Source: an uncultured Methanosarcinales archaeon
Lineage (GTDB): Archaea > Nanobdellota > Nanobdellia > Woesearchaeales > CAYPCY01
DNA length: 64,000 bases
Assembly: GCA_964409385.1 (NCBI GenBank)
Contig: CAYPCY010000002.1
Coordinates: 10,608-74,607, forward strand
Reading direction: 5' to 3'
Below are positions 30,704 through 37,994 of this stretch, one piece after another (the first letter of the stretch is position 1; each line of letters starts with the position of its first letter). The translations under genes and the position numbers were made by a program. The notes under the pieces are model-generated. The model saw nothing but the letters and a program-made list of their open reading frames with translations, did no database searches and was not told where the DNA came from.

Positions 30704-30793
30704 GGGCCGGTAGCTCAGCCTGGTAGAGCACTTGGCTTTTAACCAAAACAGAAGGCAACCAAGGTGTCGCGAGTTCGAATCTCGTCCGGCCCA
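30704..30793 (+). tRNA. tRNA-Lys(TTT) with canonical 37/38 intron (30742-30757)
   Basis: GGGCCGG/CCGGCCC acceptor, CTTGG/CCAAG anticodon stem, BHB central helix CTTT/AAGG. Confidence 0.92.
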
Positions 30794-30803
30794 TACAAAA
30801 AAA

Positions 30804-31043
30804 ATGGCAAAAGAAGAAAAATTGGAGCATGTTTTAGTACCCGAGCATAAAAAGCTCTCTAAAGAAGAAAAATCTAACCTTCTAGAAAAATATTCAATTG
30901 ATGAAACTAAATTACCAGTAATTAAAATTAAAGATCCCGCAATAGAACATTTAGAACTAGTTCCGAATGACGTTATCAAGATTGAAAGAACAAGCTTGAC
31001 TGCTGGAAGAATAGACTTTTTTAGGAGGGTTATTGATGAGTAA
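30804..31043 (+). CDS. rpoH: DNA-directed RNA polymerase subunit H (Rpo5)
   Basis: HVLVPEH..LS, LPVIK..DPA, DVIKIER.S.TAG, RRV. Confidence 0.97.
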   Translation: MAKEEKLEHVLVPEHKKLSKEEKSNLLEKYSIDETKLPVIKIKDPAIEHLELVPNDVIKIERTSLTAGRIDFFRRVIDE

Positions 31044-32511
31044 TATTCTTGTAGAAAATTATTTTAGAGAAAAATCATTGATATCTTCAAATATTGAATC
31101 ATTCAATAAGTTTATTGACAAGTACCTTCAAGAAATAATTAATGAAAATAAAGAAGTAGAACCAACAATAATTCCAGGAAACATTCAAGATTTTAAGATA
31201 AGACTTGACAAAATTTGGGTTTCAAAACCAGAAGTTACAGAAGCGGATGGTTCAAAAAGAGAAATTACACCTACTGAAGCAAGATTAAGAAAAATTTCTT
31301 ACGCAGCACCAATTTATTTAGAGGTTTCTTCACATGTTAATGGAGTTCAAAGAGAAGCTTTCAAAAGCCAAATTGGTAATTTACCAATAATGCTAAAATC
31401 TAAATATTGTCATTTACATGGACTTTCTAAAGAAGAACTAATTAGTAAGGGAGAAGATCCTGACGATCCAGGAGGATACTTCATTATTAATGGTACAGAA
31501 AGAGTTGTCGTTATAATTGAAGATCTTGCGAGCAATACTTTAATGGTTAGCGAAGATAAAGGCGTTTCTCCTTTTGTAGGAAAATTATTTTCAGAAAGAG
31601 GATCTTATAAAATTCCTCATACTTTCGAACAATTAAGAAAGGACGGCATTTTTTATCTAACATTAACAAGATTACAGAGAGTTCCCATAATTTTATTAAT
31701 TAAAGCTTTAGGAATTGTCAAGGATGAAGAGATTATGAAATTAATAAAATCACCTTATGATTCTGAAATGCTAATTAACTTGTATGAACAATCAACCATT
31801 AAGACTGAAGAGGAAGCTATTGATAAACTAGCTAAGAAGATTGGAATAACACAAGTTAGAGAGATTAGACTTGAAAGAACTAGAGATATTTTAGACAAAT
31901 TCTTACTTCCACATATTGGAACTACTAGCGAATTTAGAATGGCTAAGGCAAAGAATTTATGTAAATATTTAAGCAAGTTCATTCTTGTTTCAAAAGGAGA
32001 CTTACCAACTGATGATAAGGATCATTATAAAAATAAAAGGTTAAAAATGGCAGGAGATCTTCTTGCTGATTTGTTCAGGGTTAATATTAAAGTTTTAATT
32101 GGAGACATGCTTTATAATTTCCAAAGAATAGTAAAAAGAGGAAAATTTCCTTCAGTAAAAGTAGTTATTAGGAATAAATTATTAACTCAAAGAATTTATA
32201 GTATGTTAGCAACTGGTTCATGGGTTGGAGGTCGTAAAGGAGTTTCCCAAAGATTATCCAGACATAATTTCTTAGATACAATGTCGCACTTACAAAGGGT
32301 TGTTAGTCCTCTTATGAGCTCTCAAGAAAATTTTGAGGCTAGAGCTTTACACCCTACTCATTTAGGAAGACTTTGTCCTACTGAAACTACTGAAGGAACA
32401 AATATTGGTTTAAGAAAGAATCTTTCATTATTATCTAAAGTTTCTTCAGAGGTTGATGTTGAAGAATTAATAACTTCATTAAAAAATGTGGGTTTGGAGG
32501 AGGAAAAATGA
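31036..32511 (+). CDS. rpoB2: RNA polymerase subunit B'' (Rpo2N)
   Basis: EARLR..SY.AP, DPGGYFIINGTERV, DKDHY.NKRL, HLGRLCP.ET. Confidence 0.97.
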   Translation: MSNILVENYFREKSLISSNIESFNKFIDKYLQEIINENKEVEPTIIPGNIQDFKIRLDKIWVSKPEVTEADGSKREITPTEARLRKISYAAPIYLEVSSHVNGVQREAFKSQIGNLPIMLKSKYCHLHGLSKEELISKGEDPDDPGGYFIINGTERVVVIIEDLASNTLMVSEDKGVSPFVGKLFSERGSYKIPHTFEQLRKDGIFYLTLTRLQRVPIILLIKALGIVKDEEIMKLIKSPYDSEMLINLYEQSTIKTEEEAIDKLAKKIGITQVREIRLERTRDILDKFLLPHIGTTSEFRMAKAKNLCKYLSKFILVSKGDLPTDDKDHYKNKRLKMAGDLLADLFRVNIKVLIGDMLYNFQRIVKRGKFPSVKVVIRNKLLTQRIYSMLATGSWVGGRKGVSQRLSRHNFLDTMSHLQRVVSPLMSSQENFEARALHPTHLGRLCPTETTEGTNIGLRKNLSLLSKVSSEVDVEELITSLKNVGLEEEK

Positions 32512-34310
32512 CTGATGTGTTTTTGGACGGAAAATTTATTGGCACTGTAAAAAATGAAGAAGTATTTGTTGAAAAAATAATTTCTGAAAGAAGATCTGGA
32601 AAATTCCCTGAAAGTATTAGTGCAAGATTTGACGATTCTGTGAAATCTGTACTTCTAGAATCTTGCAGAGGAAGAACTCTAAGGCCTTTACTAGTTGTTA
32701 AGAATGGAAAAACATTACTTAATGAAAAGCATATTTCTAAATTAAAATCAAGGGATTTAAAATGGACTGATCTAATAAAACAAGGAGTTATTGAATATTT
32801 AGATGCTAATGAGGAAGAATCAGCATTCATAGCTTTTTTCGAAGATGAATTAACTAAAGAAAATACTCATCTGGAAGTTTCTGCATTAGGAATGGTTGGA
32901 TTATGCACTTCTCTAGTTCCTTTTGGAAACTACAGTCCAGGTACTAGACTTATTCAAGGTTCTAAAAATCAAAAACAAGCATTAGGATTCTACGCTGCAA
33001 ATTATTTACAAAGAATGGACATGGACATTAGTTTATTACATACTCCTCAAATTCCACTAGCCCAATCATTAATGCACGAAGTTTCTGATTATAACAAGCA
33101 TCCATCAGGACAAAATATTGTTTTGGCAGTTATGAGTTATGAAGGATATAACATGGAAGACGCTATTGTAATAAATAAGGGGTCTATAGAGAGGGGTCTT
33201 GGAAGAAGTACTTACTTCAGACCAGTTTCTGCAGAAGAACTTAGATATTCGGGTGGTCTTATTGATGAAGTTTGTATTCCTGACAAGGATGTAAAAGGTT
33301 ACTTATCAGAAGTTGACTATAGATATTTAGAGGATGATGGAATAATCTATCCAGAAGCAAAAGTGTCTGAAGGAAATGTAATAATTGGAAAAACTAGTCC
33401 TCCAAGATTCTTAAGTTCTCTAGATGAATATAATCTTGCAACAAGCAGCAGAAGAGAATCTTCACTAGCATTAAAACATGGAGAGAAAGGAACTATTGAT
33501 TTTGTTTTATTAACAGAGAATGAAGAAGGAAATAAACTAGTTCAAGTAAGAGTTAGAGAACAGAGAGTCCCAGAAATAGGAGATAAATTTACATCAAGAC
33601 ATGGTCAAAAAGGAGTTGTTGGATTAGTTCTTCCTGAGGAAGATGTTCCATTCACTGCTTCAGGAGTAACTCCTGATATAATTTTCAGTCCTCACGGTAT
33701 GCCTAGTAGGATGACAGTTTCTCACTTTATAGAATTAATAGCTGGAAAAGTAGCAGCATTATCAGGAAGATATGTTGACGGTACTATGTTTTATTCAGAA
33801 AAAGAAAATGATTTAAGAAAAGAACTTGAAAGTTTTGGTTTTACTGAAAATGGAACAGAAACACTATATAATGGAATAACTGGAGAAAGGTATAAAGCAA
33901 AAATATTCATTGGAAACATGTATTATATGAAATTAAAACATATGGTTGCTAATAAAGTTCATTCAAGAGCAAGGGGACCTATACAATTACTAACAAGACA
34001 ACCTACTGAAGGAAGGGCTAAAGAAGGAGGTCTTAGACTTGGAGAGATGGAAAAGGACACTTTCGTAGCTCATGGAGCTTCATTACTATTGAAAGAAAGG
34101 TTTGATTCTGATAAAACAATAGTTCCAGTTTGTGAAAGTTGTGGAGCAATGGCAGTTTTTGATGAGTATAAAAGTAGAACCTTCTGTCCATTATGTGGGG
34201 AGGATTCTAAAGTTGGAAATACTGAAATGAGCTTTGCTTTCAAGCTAATGCTTGATGAGTTCAAAAGTTTAGGAATATTCCCTAAATTAAATTTGAAGAG
34301 TAAATACTAA
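32508..34310 (+). CDS. rpoB1: RNA polymerase subunit B' (Rpo2C)
   Basis: GYNMEDA, GDKFTSRHGQKG, LKHMV..K.H.R, GGLRLGEME, Zn ribbon. Confidence 0.97.
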   Translation: MTDVFLDGKFIGTVKNEEVFVEKIISERRSGKFPESISARFDDSVKSVLLESCRGRTLRPLLVVKNGKTLLNEKHISKLKSRDLKWTDLIKQGVIEYLDANEEESAFIAFFEDELTKENTHLEVSALGMVGLCTSLVPFGNYSPGTRLIQGSKNQKQALGFYAANYLQRMDMDISLLHTPQIPLAQSLMHEVSDYNKHPSGQNIVLAVMSYEGYNMEDAIVINKGSIERGLGRSTYFRPVSAEELRYSGGLIDEVCIPDKDVKGYLSEVDYRYLEDDGIIYPEAKVSEGNVIIGKTSPPRFLSSLDEYNLATSSRRESSLALKHGEKGTIDFVLLTENEEGNKLVQVRVREQRVPEIGDKFTSRHGQKGVVGLVLPEEDVPFTASGVTPDIIFSPHGMPSRMTVSHFIELIAGKVAALSGRYVDGTMFYSEKENDLRKELESFGFTENGTETLYNGITGERYKAKIFIGNMYYMKLKHMVANKVHSRARGPIQLLTRQPTEGRAKEGGLRLGEMEKDTFVAHGASLLLKERFDSDKTIVPVCESCGAMAVFDEYKSRTFCPLCGEDSKVGNTEMSFAFKLMLDEFKSLGIFPKLNLKSKY

Positions 34311-34311
34311 A

Positions 34312-36870
34312 ATGGAAAACGTACCAAACGAGATTAATAATATAACTTTTAGCCTGTTCGGTCCTAAAACGATTAAGAACATGGCTGCGGCCAAGGTAGT
34401 AACACCAGAACTTTATGATAGGGAAGGATATCCTGTTGATGGCGGTTTAATGGATATTAGATTAGGAGTTATCGATCCTGGAATTAGATGTAAAACTTGC
34501 GGTTCTAAATTAAAAGAATGCCTTGGACATTTTGGTTATATTGAATTAGCAAGACCAGTAGTTCATGTTAAATTTGTTCCAACCATATTAAGTATTTTAA
34601 GAAGTACTTGTAACGAGTGTTCTAAACTTCTTGTTTCTGATGAAGAATTAGAAGATGCAAAGAAATTATTAAAAAATACTATTCCAAAGTTAGTATTAAA
34701 ATCTTTAAAACTTGGCAAGAGTTGTCCTCATTGTAAGTCTGAACAAGGAAAAATAATGCTTGAAAAACCAACCACTTTTTTAGAAGTTGATAAGAGAATT
34801 TCACCTATTGAGGTTAGGTCAAGACTTGAGAAGGTTCCTGATGATGCATTGCCTGTTTTTGGTATTAATCCAGAAGCTGCAAGGCCTGAATGGCCAATCT
34901 TGACTGTATTAGCAATTCCACCAGTTACTATGAGACCTTCCATAACTTTAGAGTCTGGAGAAAGAAGTGAGGATGATTTAACACATAAACTAGCAGATAT
35001 TGTAAGGATTAATCAAAGACTTTTCGAGAATATTAACGCTGGAGCTCCAGAAATCATCATTGAAGATTTATGGGATTTATTACAGTATCACATCACAACA
35101 TTTTTTGATAATAATCTTTCTCAATTACCACCTGCTCGTCACAGAAGTGGAGAGCCACTAAAAACATTAACAGAAAGAATAACTAGTAAAGAAGGAAGAA
35201 TAAGACATAATTTAGCAGGTAAAAGAACTAATTTTTCTGCAAGAACAGTTATTAGTCCAGATCCTAAAATTGAAATGGATGAAGTTGGAGTTCCTATAGT
35301 TATGGCTTTAAAACTTACAGTTCCTGAAAGGATTACTGAATGGAATTTGAATTATCTGAAAAAGTTTGTTGAGAACGGTCCTAAAGTATATCCAGGCGCT
35401 AATTATATTGTTAGGCCTGATGGTAAAAAGAAAAAAATAACTGATGATACTAAAGAACAATTATTAGAAGAGATAGAACCAGGATTCCAGGTTGAAAGGC
35501 ATTTAATAGATGGTGATGTAGCATTATTTAACAGACAACCTTCACTACATAGAATGTCTATGATGTGTCACAAGGTTAAGGTACTTCCAGGCCTAACATT
35601 AAGACTAAATCCTGCTGTTTGTGCCCCTTACGCTGCAGACTTTGACGGGGATGAAATGAATTTGCACATTCCTCAAACAGAAGAAGCAAGGGCTGAAGCA
35701 GAAATATTACTAGAAGTAGAAACTCAAGTTATTAGTCCAAGGTACGGATTAAGTATAATTGGTTGTAATCAAGACTCAGTTTCAGGAAATTATGTTCTTA
35801 CTAAATATTTAGATTTTCCTAGGAGTGAAGCCATAGACTTACTTGCTTCAATAGGAGTTACTGATTTTTCAAAACTTCCAAAGAAAGAAATTGTTTCTGG
35901 AAAAGAAGTTTTTTCAGTATTACTTCCTAAAGATTTCAATTTTGAAGGTCACGCAAAATCTTACAAGCCAGGATCTAAAAATTCTGACGATTTTGTTAAG
36001 ATAGAAAAAGGAGTATTAAAAACAGGAGTATTAGACAGTAAAAATATTGGTGGTGGTTCTGGACTTTTACTGAGAAATTTACACAAACAATACGGTCAAG
36101 AAAGAGCACTAAAAATGCTAGGATTATTTTTCAGGCTTGGAATTCAAACTTTATTGAAGTACGGGTTTTCATCTTCATTATCCGATACTGACTTAACTTC
36201 TAAAGCTTCCAAAGAGGTTGAAAATATAATTTTAGAATCTGAAAAGGAAGTTAATAAATTAATTAAGAAGTATAATCAAAAAACTTTAGTTTCTCTTCCA
36301 GGAAGAGGATTAAGAGAAACTTTAGAACTAAAAATTCTTGAAGTTCTTAATAGAGCAAGAAACGATGCTGGAAAAGTAGTTTTCGATACTGCTGATGTAA
36401 TGAGTCATACTTACATAATGGTTGATTCGGGAGCTAGAGGTAATGAAATCCAACTAGCTCAAATGGCTGCTTGTGTAGGACAACAAGCGTTCAGAGGGTC
36501 TAGAATTAACCAAGGATTTGGAGGTAGAACATTATCTTGTTTCAAAAAGAATGATTTAAGTCCTAAAGCACATGGTTTTGTTAGGGGGGGTTATAAGTCA
36601 GGATTAAAACCTCACGAGTTCTTTTTTATGAATATGACTGGTAGGGATTCATTAATGGATACTGCATTAAGAACTCCAAAATCAGGTTATCTCTACAGAA
36701 GATTAGCTAATGCCATGCAGGATTTAAAAGTAGAATATGATTTTACTGTTAGAGATGCAGCTAATAAGATTGTTCAATTCACGTATGGAGAGGACGGTAT
36801 TGATGTTTCAAAAAGTGAAGGAGGCAGTATTAACATTAAAAAAATAGTTGATACTGTTATTAAGGGTTGA
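34312..36870 (+). CDS. rpoA1: RNA polymerase subunit A' (Rpo1N)
   Basis: GHFGYIELA.PV, NRQPSLH, ADFDGDEMN, SGYL.RRL. Confidence 0.97.
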   Translation: MENVPNEINNITFSLFGPKTIKNMAAAKVVTPELYDREGYPVDGGLMDIRLGVIDPGIRCKTCGSKLKECLGHFGYIELARPVVHVKFVPTILSILRSTCNECSKLLVSDEELEDAKKLLKNTIPKLVLKSLKLGKSCPHCKSEQGKIMLEKPTTFLEVDKRISPIEVRSRLEKVPDDALPVFGINPEAARPEWPILTVLAIPPVTMRPSITLESGERSEDDLTHKLADIVRINQRLFENINAGAPEIIIEDLWDLLQYHITTFFDNNLSQLPPARHRSGEPLKTLTERITSKEGRIRHNLAGKRTNFSARTVISPDPKIEMDEVGVPIVMALKLTVPERITEWNLNYLKKFVENGPKVYPGANYIVRPDGKKKKITDDTKEQLLEEIEPGFQVERHLIDGDVALFNRQPSLHRMSMMCHKVKVLPGLTLRLNPAVCAPYAADFDGDEMNLHIPQTEEARAEAEILLEVETQVISPRYGLSIIGCNQDSVSGNYVLTKYLDFPRSEAIDLLASIGVTDFSKLPKKEIVSGKEVFSVLLPKDFNFEGHAKSYKPGSKNSDDFVKIEKGVLKTGVLDSKNIGGGSGLLLRNLHKQYGQERALKMLGLFFRLGIQTLLKYGFSSSLSDTDLTSKASKEVENIILESEKEVNKLIKKYNQKTLVSLPGRGLRETLELKILEVLNRARNDAGKVVFDTADVMSHTYIMVDSGARGNEIQLAQMAACVGQQAFRGSRINQGFGGRTLSCFKKNDLSPKAHGFVRGGYKSGLKPHEFFFMNMTGRDSLMDTALRTPKSGYLYRRLANAMQDLKVEYDFTVRDAANKIVQFTYGEDGIDVSKSEGGSINIKKIVDTVIKG

Positions 36871-36875
36871 TATTA

Positions 36876-37994
36876 ATGAAAGCATTCGATGAGTATAAAG
36901 GAAAATTACCTGTTTCTTTAATTGAAGAGGTTAAAGAAGAATTACCTGAAGGTATTAATGAAGCAAAAGTTAAGAAAATATTGGAAGAAGTCTATTCAGA
37001 ATACATTAAGAGTTTAGTGAATCCTGGTGAATCTGTAGGAATAATTTCTGCAGAATCAATTGGAGAACCTAGTACTCAAATGACATTAAACACTAAATTA
37101 TTAGCAGGGGTTTCCGAAATGAATGTTACTCTTGGAATTCCCAGAATTATTGAAATTTTAGACGGAAGAAAAATAATAAAAACTCCTATGATGGAAATAG
37201 GACTTAATAAGAAATTTTTGGATAAGGAAGTTAAAAAATTCGCAATGAAAATAAAAGATACTTCTTTGAAAGAGTTTGTTGTTAAGGTTTCTACAGATAT
37301 TACTAATAGTTCACTAAAGCTTGATTTGAATAAAGATCTTCTTTCAGAGTATGATTTAACTCCTGAAGAAATTAAAGTTTTAGTGGCTAAGAAGCATGAT
37401 GTTAAATTAACAGGCAATTCTTTAACAATTAAAGTTAAGGATGCTTCAATAGGTGATTTACATGAGGTTAAAGGTATAGTTTTAGATTTACATGCTATTG
37501 GAATAAAAGGAGTAACACAAGTATTACCTGTTAAAAAAGACACAAAACATGTTATAATGACTTCTGGTTCAAACCTTAAAGAAGTATTAAAACTTGATTT
37601 TGTCGATCCAAAAACCACTAAAAGTAATGATCTTTATGAAACAGAAAAATTCTTTGGTATAGAAGCAGTTAGACAATTAATAATAGACGAAGTTCTAAAG
37701 GTTTTCGAAAATCAAGGATTAGATATTAATGCAAGACACATATTGTTAATCGCTGATATGATGTGTTATTCTGGAAAGATTCAAGGAATAACAAGATATG
37801 GGATCGTTTCTGAAAAGAAATCAGTTCTTGCCAGGGCTTCTTTCGAAACACCTGTAAAGTACTTAATAGCAGCTGCATTAGATGGTGAAGTTGATGAGTT
37901 GGCTAGTGTTGTTGAGAATGTTATGATTAACCAACCAATTCCTGTAGGAACTGGTCTTCCAGGACTTGTAACAAAGTTTAAAAATAAAAAGTAA
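36876..37994 (+). CDS. rpoA2: RNA polymerase subunit A'' (Rpo1C)
   Basis: PGESVG..SA.SIGEP.TQMTL, GIEA.R, RHI.L.AD.M, LARASFE, GTG. Confidence 0.97.
   Translation: MKAFDEYKGKLPVSLIEEVKEELPEGINEAKVKKILEEVYSEYIKSLVNPGESVGIISAESIGEPSTQMTLNTKLLAGVSEMNVTLGIPRIIEILDGRKIIKTPMMEIGLNKKFLDKEVKKFAMKIKDTSLKEFVVKVSTDITNSSLKLDLNKDLLSEYDLTPEEIKVLVAKKHDVKLTGNSLTIKVKDASIGDLHEVKGIVLDLHAIGIKGVTQVLPVKKDTKHVIMTSGSNLKEVLKLDFVDPKTTKSNDLYETEKFFGIEAVRQLIIDEVLKVFENQGLDINARHILLIADMMCYSGKIQGITRYGIVSEKKSVLARASFETPVKYLIAAALDGEVDELASVVENVMINQPIPVGTGLPGLVTKFKNKK

Follow-up and report, generated by a model that had tools for sequence, protein, structure and literature searches.

A Woesearchaeal RNA polymerase with paired replacement of the catalytic-loop asparagine and the trigger-loop histidine

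The stretch of DNA analysed here, 64,000 nucleotides from an uncultured marine archaeon of the order Woesearchaeales (DPANN) and hereafter called the window, carries an RNA polymerase operon whose active site departs from the canonical one at two coupled places. In Rpo1N (A'), the asparagine of the metal-A loop NADFDGD is replaced by alanine, and in Rpo1C (A'') the Phe-His-Phe of the trigger loop is replaced by Lys-Leu-Leu (KLL), with leucine at the position of the histidine. The literature calls the first of these residues 'universally conserved' (PMC7862312) and the second 'invariant', 'ultra-conserved' or 'universally conserved' (PMC3737540, PMC12391331, PMC11343019); here and below, statements from the literature rest on the cited passages of each article. 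We find that both changes are real, fixed in the clade of the window, under strong purifying selection and coupled to one another. Judging from these comparisons, the sole, functional polymerase of this lineage has probably settled on an alternative active-site configuration. The asparagine change alone is recurrent and has already been assayed in vitro; the feature that merits attention is its pairing with a histidine-less trigger loop in a sole polymerase, in two separate lineages.

Two replaced residues in the active site

The Rpo1N open reading frame (34312-36870, 852 codons) has a translation that includes CAPYAADFDGDEMNLHI, and its catalytic loop reads PYAADFDGDEMN. Three features of the active site carry the argument:

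35629..35661, + strand: metal-A loop YAADFDGDEMN, in which Ala441 replaces the Asn of NADFDGD (open reading frame translation, structure alignment)
35533..35535, + strand: Arg408, equivalent to Rpb1 R446 and beta' R425, the main reader of the 2'-OH according to PMC7862312; retained, in the motif FNRQPSLH (translation, ungapped alignment to Rpb1 435-530)
37077..37112, + strand: nucleotide-interacting region of the trigger loop, QMTLNTKLLAGV (alignment to Rpb1 1050-1116)

The codons of the metal-A loop region (35626-35661) are ccc tac gct gca gac ttt gac ggg gat gaa atg aat. The alanine codon, GCT at 35632-35634, lies two base changes, in its first two bases, from AAT or AAC, and the three metal-binding aspartates of DFDGD are all retained (GAC TTT GAC GGG GAT, 35638-35652). 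When a 100-residue piece of Rpo1N around the loop was compared with solved structures by phmmer, its residues 1-96 aligned with S. cerevisiae Rpb1 435-530; because this alignment has no gaps, Ala441 corresponds to Rpb1 N479. Asparagine occupies that position in every solved archaeal Rpo1N chain among the matches listed, and the Ala441 column is asparagine in 118 of 118 aligned relatives. An initial annotation, made from the letters alone, had reported both the AADFDGD variant and the three intact aspartates; translation and the Rpb1 alignment, together with the further sequencing runs described below, confirm both.

In the trigger loop, NTKLLAGV stands in place of NTFHFAGV. Lysine (AAA, 37095-37097) aligns to Rpb1 F1084, leucine (TTA, 37098-37100) to H1085 and a second leucine (TTA, 37101-37103) to F1086, which bears out the trigger-loop change that the initial annotation had linked to the alanine. 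All five Rpo1C sequences of the clade (87-100% identity) share KLL and read NTKLLAGV, whereas the histidine is present in 115 of 115 homologues from outside the clade. The remaining nucleotide-interacting positions are canonical, with Gln, Leu and Asn kept (QMTLN; Q1078, L1081 and N1082 of Rpb1), and of the set Q1078/L1081/N1082/H1085 only the histidine is absent.

In yeast, N479 and R446 are placed to contact the ribose hydroxyls, and Q1078, L1081, N1082 and H1085 touch the nucleoside triphosphate (NTP) (PMC3325174). That the asparagine contacts a ribose hydroxyl of the incoming NTP, as the initial annotation stated, is supported by three sources (PMC3325174, PMC7862312, PMC3737540). By homology, the polymerase of the window would lack one hydroxyl contact and the phosphate-contacting histidine, and would keep the metal site, the arginine and the first three contacts of the trigger loop.

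The changes are authentic and maintained by selection

Four further public runs from two studies of marine or seawater metagenomes, with samples not flagged as a possible source of the assembly, yielded contigs that span both sites without a single differing letter, at a depth of 3-5. The exact Rpo1N protein was found on three contigs from three sources. Two diverged relatives also carry AADFDGD, namely P0123 (852 aa, 91% identical, from a separate assembly) and P0003 (partial; 504 of 611 residues identical including a 39-residue gap, about 82%). The reading frames of Rpo1N and Rpo1C are intact. Between the Rpo1C of the window and that of a metagenome relative (L253), the nonsynonymous distance (dN) is 0.098 and the synonymous distance (dS) 1.08, a dN/dS of 0.09, and the KLL codons of the two differ only synonymously. 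Since the contigs are identical, the diverged relatives alike and dN/dS low, we take alanine and KLL to be fixed in the clade and maintained by selection.

The genome (798 kb in 15 contigs, rated 100% complete) holds one Rpo1N and one Rpo1C. Leucine at the histidine position is present, fixed in the clade and under purifying selection in a sole polymerase, which is presumably competent. The genome is metagenome-assembled and the depth of the additional runs is low, which could point to an assembly or sequencing artefact or to a decaying gene. Against this stand the identical sequence across several runs and sources, the same residues in diverged relatives, the intact frames, the dN/dS and the fact that this is the only copy in the genome, and we regard the probability of an artefact or of decay as negligible. 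Sequencing error, which the initial annotation had raised, is excluded by the further runs and the diverged relatives.

P0003, which comes from a contig of 2 kb, is missing 39 residues in the N-terminal zinc-binding region (residues 66-104 of P0001). This gap may reflect a true deletion, or else a mistake in gene calling or in assembly.

Distribution of the asparagine replacement

The position is nearly always asparagine, and it has been replaced by a small residue many times over. We examined 30 same-order loci, that of the window included, from 60 genomes with a match, and NADFDGD together with the trigger-loop histidine was found in 29 of 29 relatives. The motif could be seen in 119 of the best 120 Rpo1N homologues from a large protein collection; asparagine was present in 117 and alanine in two, the window's own sequence and P0003. 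Across a sample of 401 genomes of the phylum, 17 lack the asparagine (11 Gly, 6 Ala), and these fall in 11 of 281 genera and 9 families.

A wider census covered 185,579 species with one genome each, the window's own record left out, and recovered [G/A]ADFDGDEMN in 79 archaeal species (64 Gly, 15 Ala). A scan for codons that do not start with A gave at least 120 matches; among the matches listed, Gly accounts for 96 and Ala for 9, with a small number of His, Gln, Val and Tyr, not all of them in polymerase loops. Replacement extends to at least about 80 bacterial species whose sequences, among the matches listed, are clearly beta' loops. Most of the matches listed are such bacterial loops, and the labels of their records include Chloroflexota, Limnocylindria, Armatimonadota, and Saccharibacteria with other Patescibacteria.

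Serine, threonine and aspartate were considered as common stepping stones from asparagine to glycine or alanine and were hardly found. Codons of the form A[C/G/T] gave eight matches (Thr 4, Ile 2, Ser 1, Met 1), some of them not polymerase loops, and none of the 120 matches listed in the scan of codons not starting with A had aspartate at the position. A text search returned no paper with GADFDGD or AADFDGD in the library covered, and a literature search found none describing these variants; the recurrent replacement by a small residue seems to have gone unreported. The census supplies enzymologists with natural Gly and Ala variants, and some of the lineages may be culturable.

Other residues at this position were also encountered. 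One locus labelled Woesearchaeota (L093) has YADFDGDEMN, with tyrosine at the asparagine position and the trigger loop QTILRAFHWVGM, another unusual pairing. Three loci labelled Clostridia, Christensenella and Lachnospiraceae (L049, L088, L101) have HADFDGDQMP, with histidine at the asparagine position and proline after QM; no recognisable trigger loop lies within 6-7 kb downstream of them, and they may represent a divergent beta'-like paralogue. In two Rhizonema loci (L083, L086), QADFDGDQMVV stands in a context unlike beta' (AEEYHQADFDGD), which may belong to another protein with a polymerase-like metal loop.

Histidine loss and the asparagine site

None of the 17 genomes without the asparagine in the phylum sample has the canonical LNTFHF. 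We scanned the same 401 genomes, within the frame GE..TQM.....x.AG, for codons other than those of His and Gln at the histidine position. The histidine position is changed in six genomes, and five of these six also lack the asparagine:

G000 (the genome of the window): Leu at the His position, Ala at the Asn position
G013: Leu at the His position, Gly at the Asn position
G263: Leu at the His position, Gly at the Asn position
G077: Arg at the His position, Ala at the Asn position
G338: Arg at the His position, Ala at the Asn position
G340: Arg at the His position, Asn at the Asn position

Histidine loss is thus found almost only in lineages already without the asparagine. The only change at the histidine position that the scan found in an asparagine-bearing genome is that of G340 (L255, G340:C7:9647-12693), where NADFDGD is kept and the trigger loop QMTMRTHRFAGI reads THRF, with a histidine one place early. 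Close relatives show the contrast directly. Within one family, G205 has Asn with FHL, whereas G013 and G263 (genus g14) have Gly with KLL; within one genus, G129 and G142 have Asn with FHM, whereas G077 and G338 have Ala with FRM. The census of all archaea added one locus (L248) with Gly and FRS, which is closest, at 63% identity, to Ala-bearing lineages that keep the histidine and only 53% identical to the G077 group. Among the natural Gly and Ala variants found, KLL occurs only in the clade of the window and in genus g14.

If the two sites were independent, the computed chance of three in four apparent histidine-loss events falling in a background of about 4% of genomes would be about 3 in 10,000. 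The proposal of the initial annotation that the asparagine change travels with remodelling of the trigger loop is borne out by KLL in all five clade sequences, by a second lineage with Gly and KLL, by a third with Ala and Arg, and by the five of six histidine-changed genomes. The covariation it had foreseen holds at the histidine position; several other trigger-loop differences turned out to be lineage background. A Thr-to-Val change in the trigger loop was rejected as a partner of asparagine loss, NVFH occurring also in four asparagine-bearing members of family f109. Lysine before the histidine was likewise rejected as a general compensator, being the background state ([T/V]-K-H) in 28 of 28 asparagine-bearing genomes of one order of the candidate phyla radiation (CPR), the order to which a Gly-bearing genome belongs. 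Loss of the cleavage factor TFS was rejected as a correlate, as one TFIIS-type zinc ribbon each is present in G000, G013, G263, G205 and G005.

The search for archaeal AADFDGD and for co-occurring histidine loss that the initial annotation had suggested returned the 15 Ala and 64 Gly species given above, and 56 of the 60 asparagine-less archaeal loci with a readable trigger loop keep the histidine. Because so many keep it, asparagine loss does not force histidine loss. In asparagine-less bacterial loci, the histidine is kept wherever the loop was found. Nearly all natural Gly and Ala variants (DPANN, CPR, Chloroflexota and others) accordingly resemble the window in their small residue and differ from it in keeping the histidine. 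Loss of the asparagine looks permissive for loss of the histidine, and not sufficient for it.

One or two origins of the Lys-Leu-Leu loop

A residue other than asparagine together with KLL is found in two lineages that are not sisters. We built a core-subunit tree from Rpo1N, Rpo2N and Rpo2C (29 genomes, 1948 columns, LG+G4, quick search). The window grouped with seven genomes that have both Asn and His (SH-like approximate likelihood ratio test support, SH-aLRT, 99), and G013 and G263 grouped with G205 elsewhere in the order (SH-aLRT 100). Forcing the window together with G013 and G263 cost 131 log-likelihood (lnL) units and was rejected by the approximately unbiased (AU) test (p = 0.00027).

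The alternative is that KLL arose once and that rpoA'' then passed laterally from one Woesearchaeal lineage to another. Rpo1C by itself leaves room for this: with the trigger-loop columns removed, a joint clade was not rejected under LG+G4 (AU p = 0.59, the constrained tree being 5.3 lnL better) or under LG+C20 (AU p = 0.23). Both KLL groups sit on long Rpo1C stems (0.91 changes per site for the clade of the window and 0.55 for the other), so attraction between them is expected, and the free tree under the site-heterogeneous LG+C20 model keeps the two apart and places the group of the window with its core-subunit neighbours. The Rpo1C of the window is 48% identical to those of G013 and G263, no higher than the 49-53% to its tree neighbours, and sliding identity revealed no recombination tract between the KLL lineages, G013 and G263 being nowhere closer than those neighbours. 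We consider transfer of rpoA'' improbable, and convergence appears to be the better reading. The coupling argument would hold even under transfer, because the asparagine codon lies in Rpo1N, which has a separate history; GCT in the window and GGT in G013 and G263 differ in Rpo1N genes of separate descent.

Other changes in the enzyme

Rpo1N has 391 columns with at least 95% conservation in relatives, and five of them are changed in the clade, N441A included; Rpo1C has 99 such columns, of which eight are changed, and four of the eight lie in the trigger loop. At 0.91 changes per site, the Rpo1C stem of the clade is some three times as long as the median end branch (0.27). Identity to the next-best homologue falls from 87% to 58% in Rpo1C and only to about 70% in Rpo1N. 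This pattern suggests a burst of change in A'' that was followed by strong constraint.

Columns at least 90% conserved in relatives and changed in both KLL lineages are N441, G228 and L579 in Rpo1N, F74K, H75L, F76L and D285N in Rpo1C, and one column in each half of Rpo2. In the Rpo2 comparison with 19-20 relatives, where the window is the sole representative of its clade, it departs from 4 of the 155 columns that are invariant in Rpo2N and from 1 of the 175 that are so in Rpo2C. Residue 453 of Rpo2N (codon 32389-32391) is threonine, against proline in 19 of 19 relatives (ETPEG to ETTEG); its counterparts in the alignment are Rpb2 P528 and E. coli beta P564, beside the glutamate of the active-site ceiling, and the change is not shared by the genus with Gly and KLL. 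The Rpo2C codon 33927-33929 encodes methionine, where 20 of 20 relatives have leucine and the Gly-and-KLL genus has glutamine.

Functional interpretation

The closest experimental counterpart is P. furiosus A' N456A (Fouqueau et al. 2013, PMC3737540), in which an archaeal enzyme carries the very same Asn-to-Ala exchange at the same site. That mutant is active and the effect moderate, with a kpol of 3.8 against 13 per second (3.4-fold slower), and from Table 2 of the same article we compute a discrimination against 2'-deoxynucleoside triphosphates (2'-dNTPs) of about 282-fold, against 680-fold for the wild type, a loss of about 2.4-fold. It is an engineered single change with the histidine kept, whereas the window naturally lacks the histidine, even though H87A in P. 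furiosus A'' abolishes promoter-directed transcription and lowers kpol about 10-fold and discrimination about 7-fold (PMC3737540). The same ribose-hydroxyl contact is removed in E. coli beta' N458S and yeast N479S (PMC7862312, PMC3325174), although serine, unlike the alanine of the window, retains a hydroxyl. Of the yeast set, N479S had the worst elongation defect in vitro (PMC3325174). The major determinant against 2'-dNTPs in E. coli is beta' R425, and N458S alters selectivity 4-fold or less; for Asn to Ser in E. coli and yeast alike the loss is less than 5-fold (PMC7862312). The role in dNTP discrimination that the initial annotation gave to the asparagine therefore holds as a contribution, and a minor one beside that of the arginine.

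Two further systems bear on the histidine. Yeast H1085L is 'viable and healthy', unlike other substitutions of this histidine (Qiu et al. 2016, PMC5127505; Duan et al. 2025, PMC12391331), and has been read as steric, 'positional' catalysis, a proposal cited in PMC12391331 and PMC11343019. Leucine at this position supports life in yeast (PMC5127505, PMC12391331), as it presumably does in the window, but H1085L is a laboratory allele in a background with canonical N479, F1084 and F1086, and the cited passages of the yeast literature contain no combination of H1085L with changes at N479. Plant Pol IV is, like the polymerase of the window, a natural enzyme with both sites replaced: its NRPD1 has Arg445 at the asparagine position and Ser898 at that of the histidine, binds NTPs loosely and discriminates rNTPs from dNTPs less well (PMC11343019). 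Pol IV differs in being a specialised paralogue beside canonical Pol I-III, whereas the variant of the window is the sole polymerase; its trigger loop makes no NTP contact, with lower affinity and fidelity, while that of the window keeps its Gln, Leu and Asn.

From these parallels we propose a sequence of steps. Replacement of the asparagine by a small residue would be a mildly costly, recurrent first step, costing about 3-fold in rate and about 2-fold in discrimination if P. furiosus is a guide. Loss of the asparagine may change which trigger-loop sequences work. In that setting leucine could keep the triphosphate of the NTP in place by steric means, a 'positional catalyst' in the manner of yeast H1085L, and the neighbouring lysine and leucine, with a few other clade-specific changes, may compensate. 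Such an enzyme would be slower and somewhat less selective, fully competent, and not retuned for dNTPs. The arrangement looks like a working alternative active site because a second lineage shows the same pairing at the asparagine and histidine positions.

A stronger proposal is that this is a second viable pocket design without Asn and His, open only to a set order of changes (Asn to Gly or Ala, then FHF to KLL) and attained at least twice independently in Woesearchaeales, with the lysine taking over part of the lost NTP contact. We offer this tentatively, as a possibility that we would not yet bet on. If it were true, the histidine would be dispensable in a cell's sole polymerase, and the asparagine would be an evolutionary gatekeeper for change in the trigger loop.

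Several points weigh against an alternative active-site configuration. The independent events are few, three or four; most asparagine-less archaea keep the histidine; and histidine-less loops in asparagine-bearing genomes could have escaped a scan with a fixed frame and uncovered Gln codons. G002, 2 of 115 homologues and the CPR order described above also combine lysine at F1084 with both Asn and His, and the AU tests on Rpo1C leave a joint KLL clade standing. All functional consequences are drawn from other species. Model systems predict, moreover, that double loss of Asn and His should be unworkable, because yeast N479S is lethal with H1085Q, H1085Y or F1086S (it is viable with F1084I; PMC3325174) and H87A abolishes promoter-directed transcription in P. 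furiosus.

Drift followed by compensation would account for much of the same evidence. Under this explanation, slightly deleterious changes became fixed in small symbiont populations and were then patched, with no advantage of their own. Enrichment of the variants in DPANN and CPR, the long Rpo1C stem and the costs of Asn-to-Ala and histidine loss in model systems (PMC3737540, PMC3325174) all fit a deleterious first step. The same K-L-L outcome with a small residue at the asparagine site in two lineages that lie apart in the core subunits argues for a narrow, constrained solution rather than random decay, and purifying selection was strong afterwards. Drift shares its mechanism with an alternative active-site configuration and differs only on any benefit; we think it unlikely as the full account, though it is the most credible of the competing explanations.

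The initial annotation had favoured an adaptive relaxation of sugar selectivity, by which a scavenging symbiont tolerates or uses 2'-deoxy or unusual nucleotides. The lowered discrimination of P. furiosus H87A and N456A, the poorer rNTP/dNTP discrimination of Pol IV and the frequent loss of the asparagine in small-genome groups (DPANN, CPR) speak for it. The main determinant, R408, and the trigger-loop Gln and Asn are nevertheless retained, the effect of Asn to Ser is small in E. coli and yeast, and deoxynucleotides in RNA would bring no obvious benefit. The link to nucleotide scavenging proved not to be specific: 384 of 401 genomes of the same small-genome, scavenging phylum keep the asparagine, and records labelled Chloroflexota, Armatimonadota and others include Gly variants as well. 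Some relaxation of sugar selectivity is possible and likely modest, nothing ties it to scavenging, and as an adaptive explanation we find it as implausible as the transfer of rpoA''.

Escape from an active-site inhibitor or antagonist that contacts the asparagine and the trigger-loop histidine seems more improbable still. The trigger loop is a known target, of streptolydigin and tagetitoxin in bacteria and of alpha-amanitin in eukaryotes (PMC3737540), and repeated selection could explain why the same positions are lost time and again. Escape is opposed by the bacterial Gly variants, in which the histidine is kept. We also know of no such inhibitor of the archaeal polymerase, no search aimed at one having been made.

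Whether the histidine acts chemically or sterically has long been debated, so far from engineered mutants. A lineage with leucine in its sole polymerase is a natural test of the steric view, and the second KLL lineage strengthens the case. The pairing with asparagine loss runs opposite to the synthetic lethality in yeast and makes background-dependent epistasis testable in a highly conserved enzyme. This new natural variant of a well-known enzyme will chiefly concern those who study polymerase mechanism and epistasis in conserved active sites.

Operon and gene structure

The polymerase genes of the window are as follows:

30732..31043, + strand: rpoH (Rpb5 C-terminal domain), first gene of the RNA polymerase operon (Pfam PF01191, E 1.9e-23)
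31033..32511, + strand: Rpo2N (B'), N-terminal piece of the split second-largest subunit (Pfam Rpb2 domains 1-3)
32508..34310, + strand: Rpo2C (B'') (Pfam Rpb2 domains 4-7)
34312..36870, + strand: Rpo1N (A'), 852 aa (Pfam Rpb1 domains 1-5, one match in the genome)
36867..37994, + strand: Rpo1C (A''), 375 aa (Pfam Rpb1 domain 5, one match in the genome)

The gene order is that of the standard archaeal operon (rpoH, split rpoB, rpoA', rpoA'', L30e, NusA, S12, S7), and the Rpo1N domains follow in order as PF04997, PF00623, PF04983, PF05000 and PF04998, with E values from 1.5e-82 to 1.9e-22.

Gene fission varies among the genomes compared. Rpo2 is split into overlapping genes in the window (31033-32511, 32508-34310) and in the other relatives examined, unlike in G205, where one open frame of about 1107 aa spans both halves (L195, G205:C10:1-7000, minus strand). 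In three Pacearchaeota-like loci (L248, L237, L078), all without the asparagine, the open frames around the catalytic loop run to 1125-1177 aa, a length that would fit a fusion of Rpo1N with Rpo1C.

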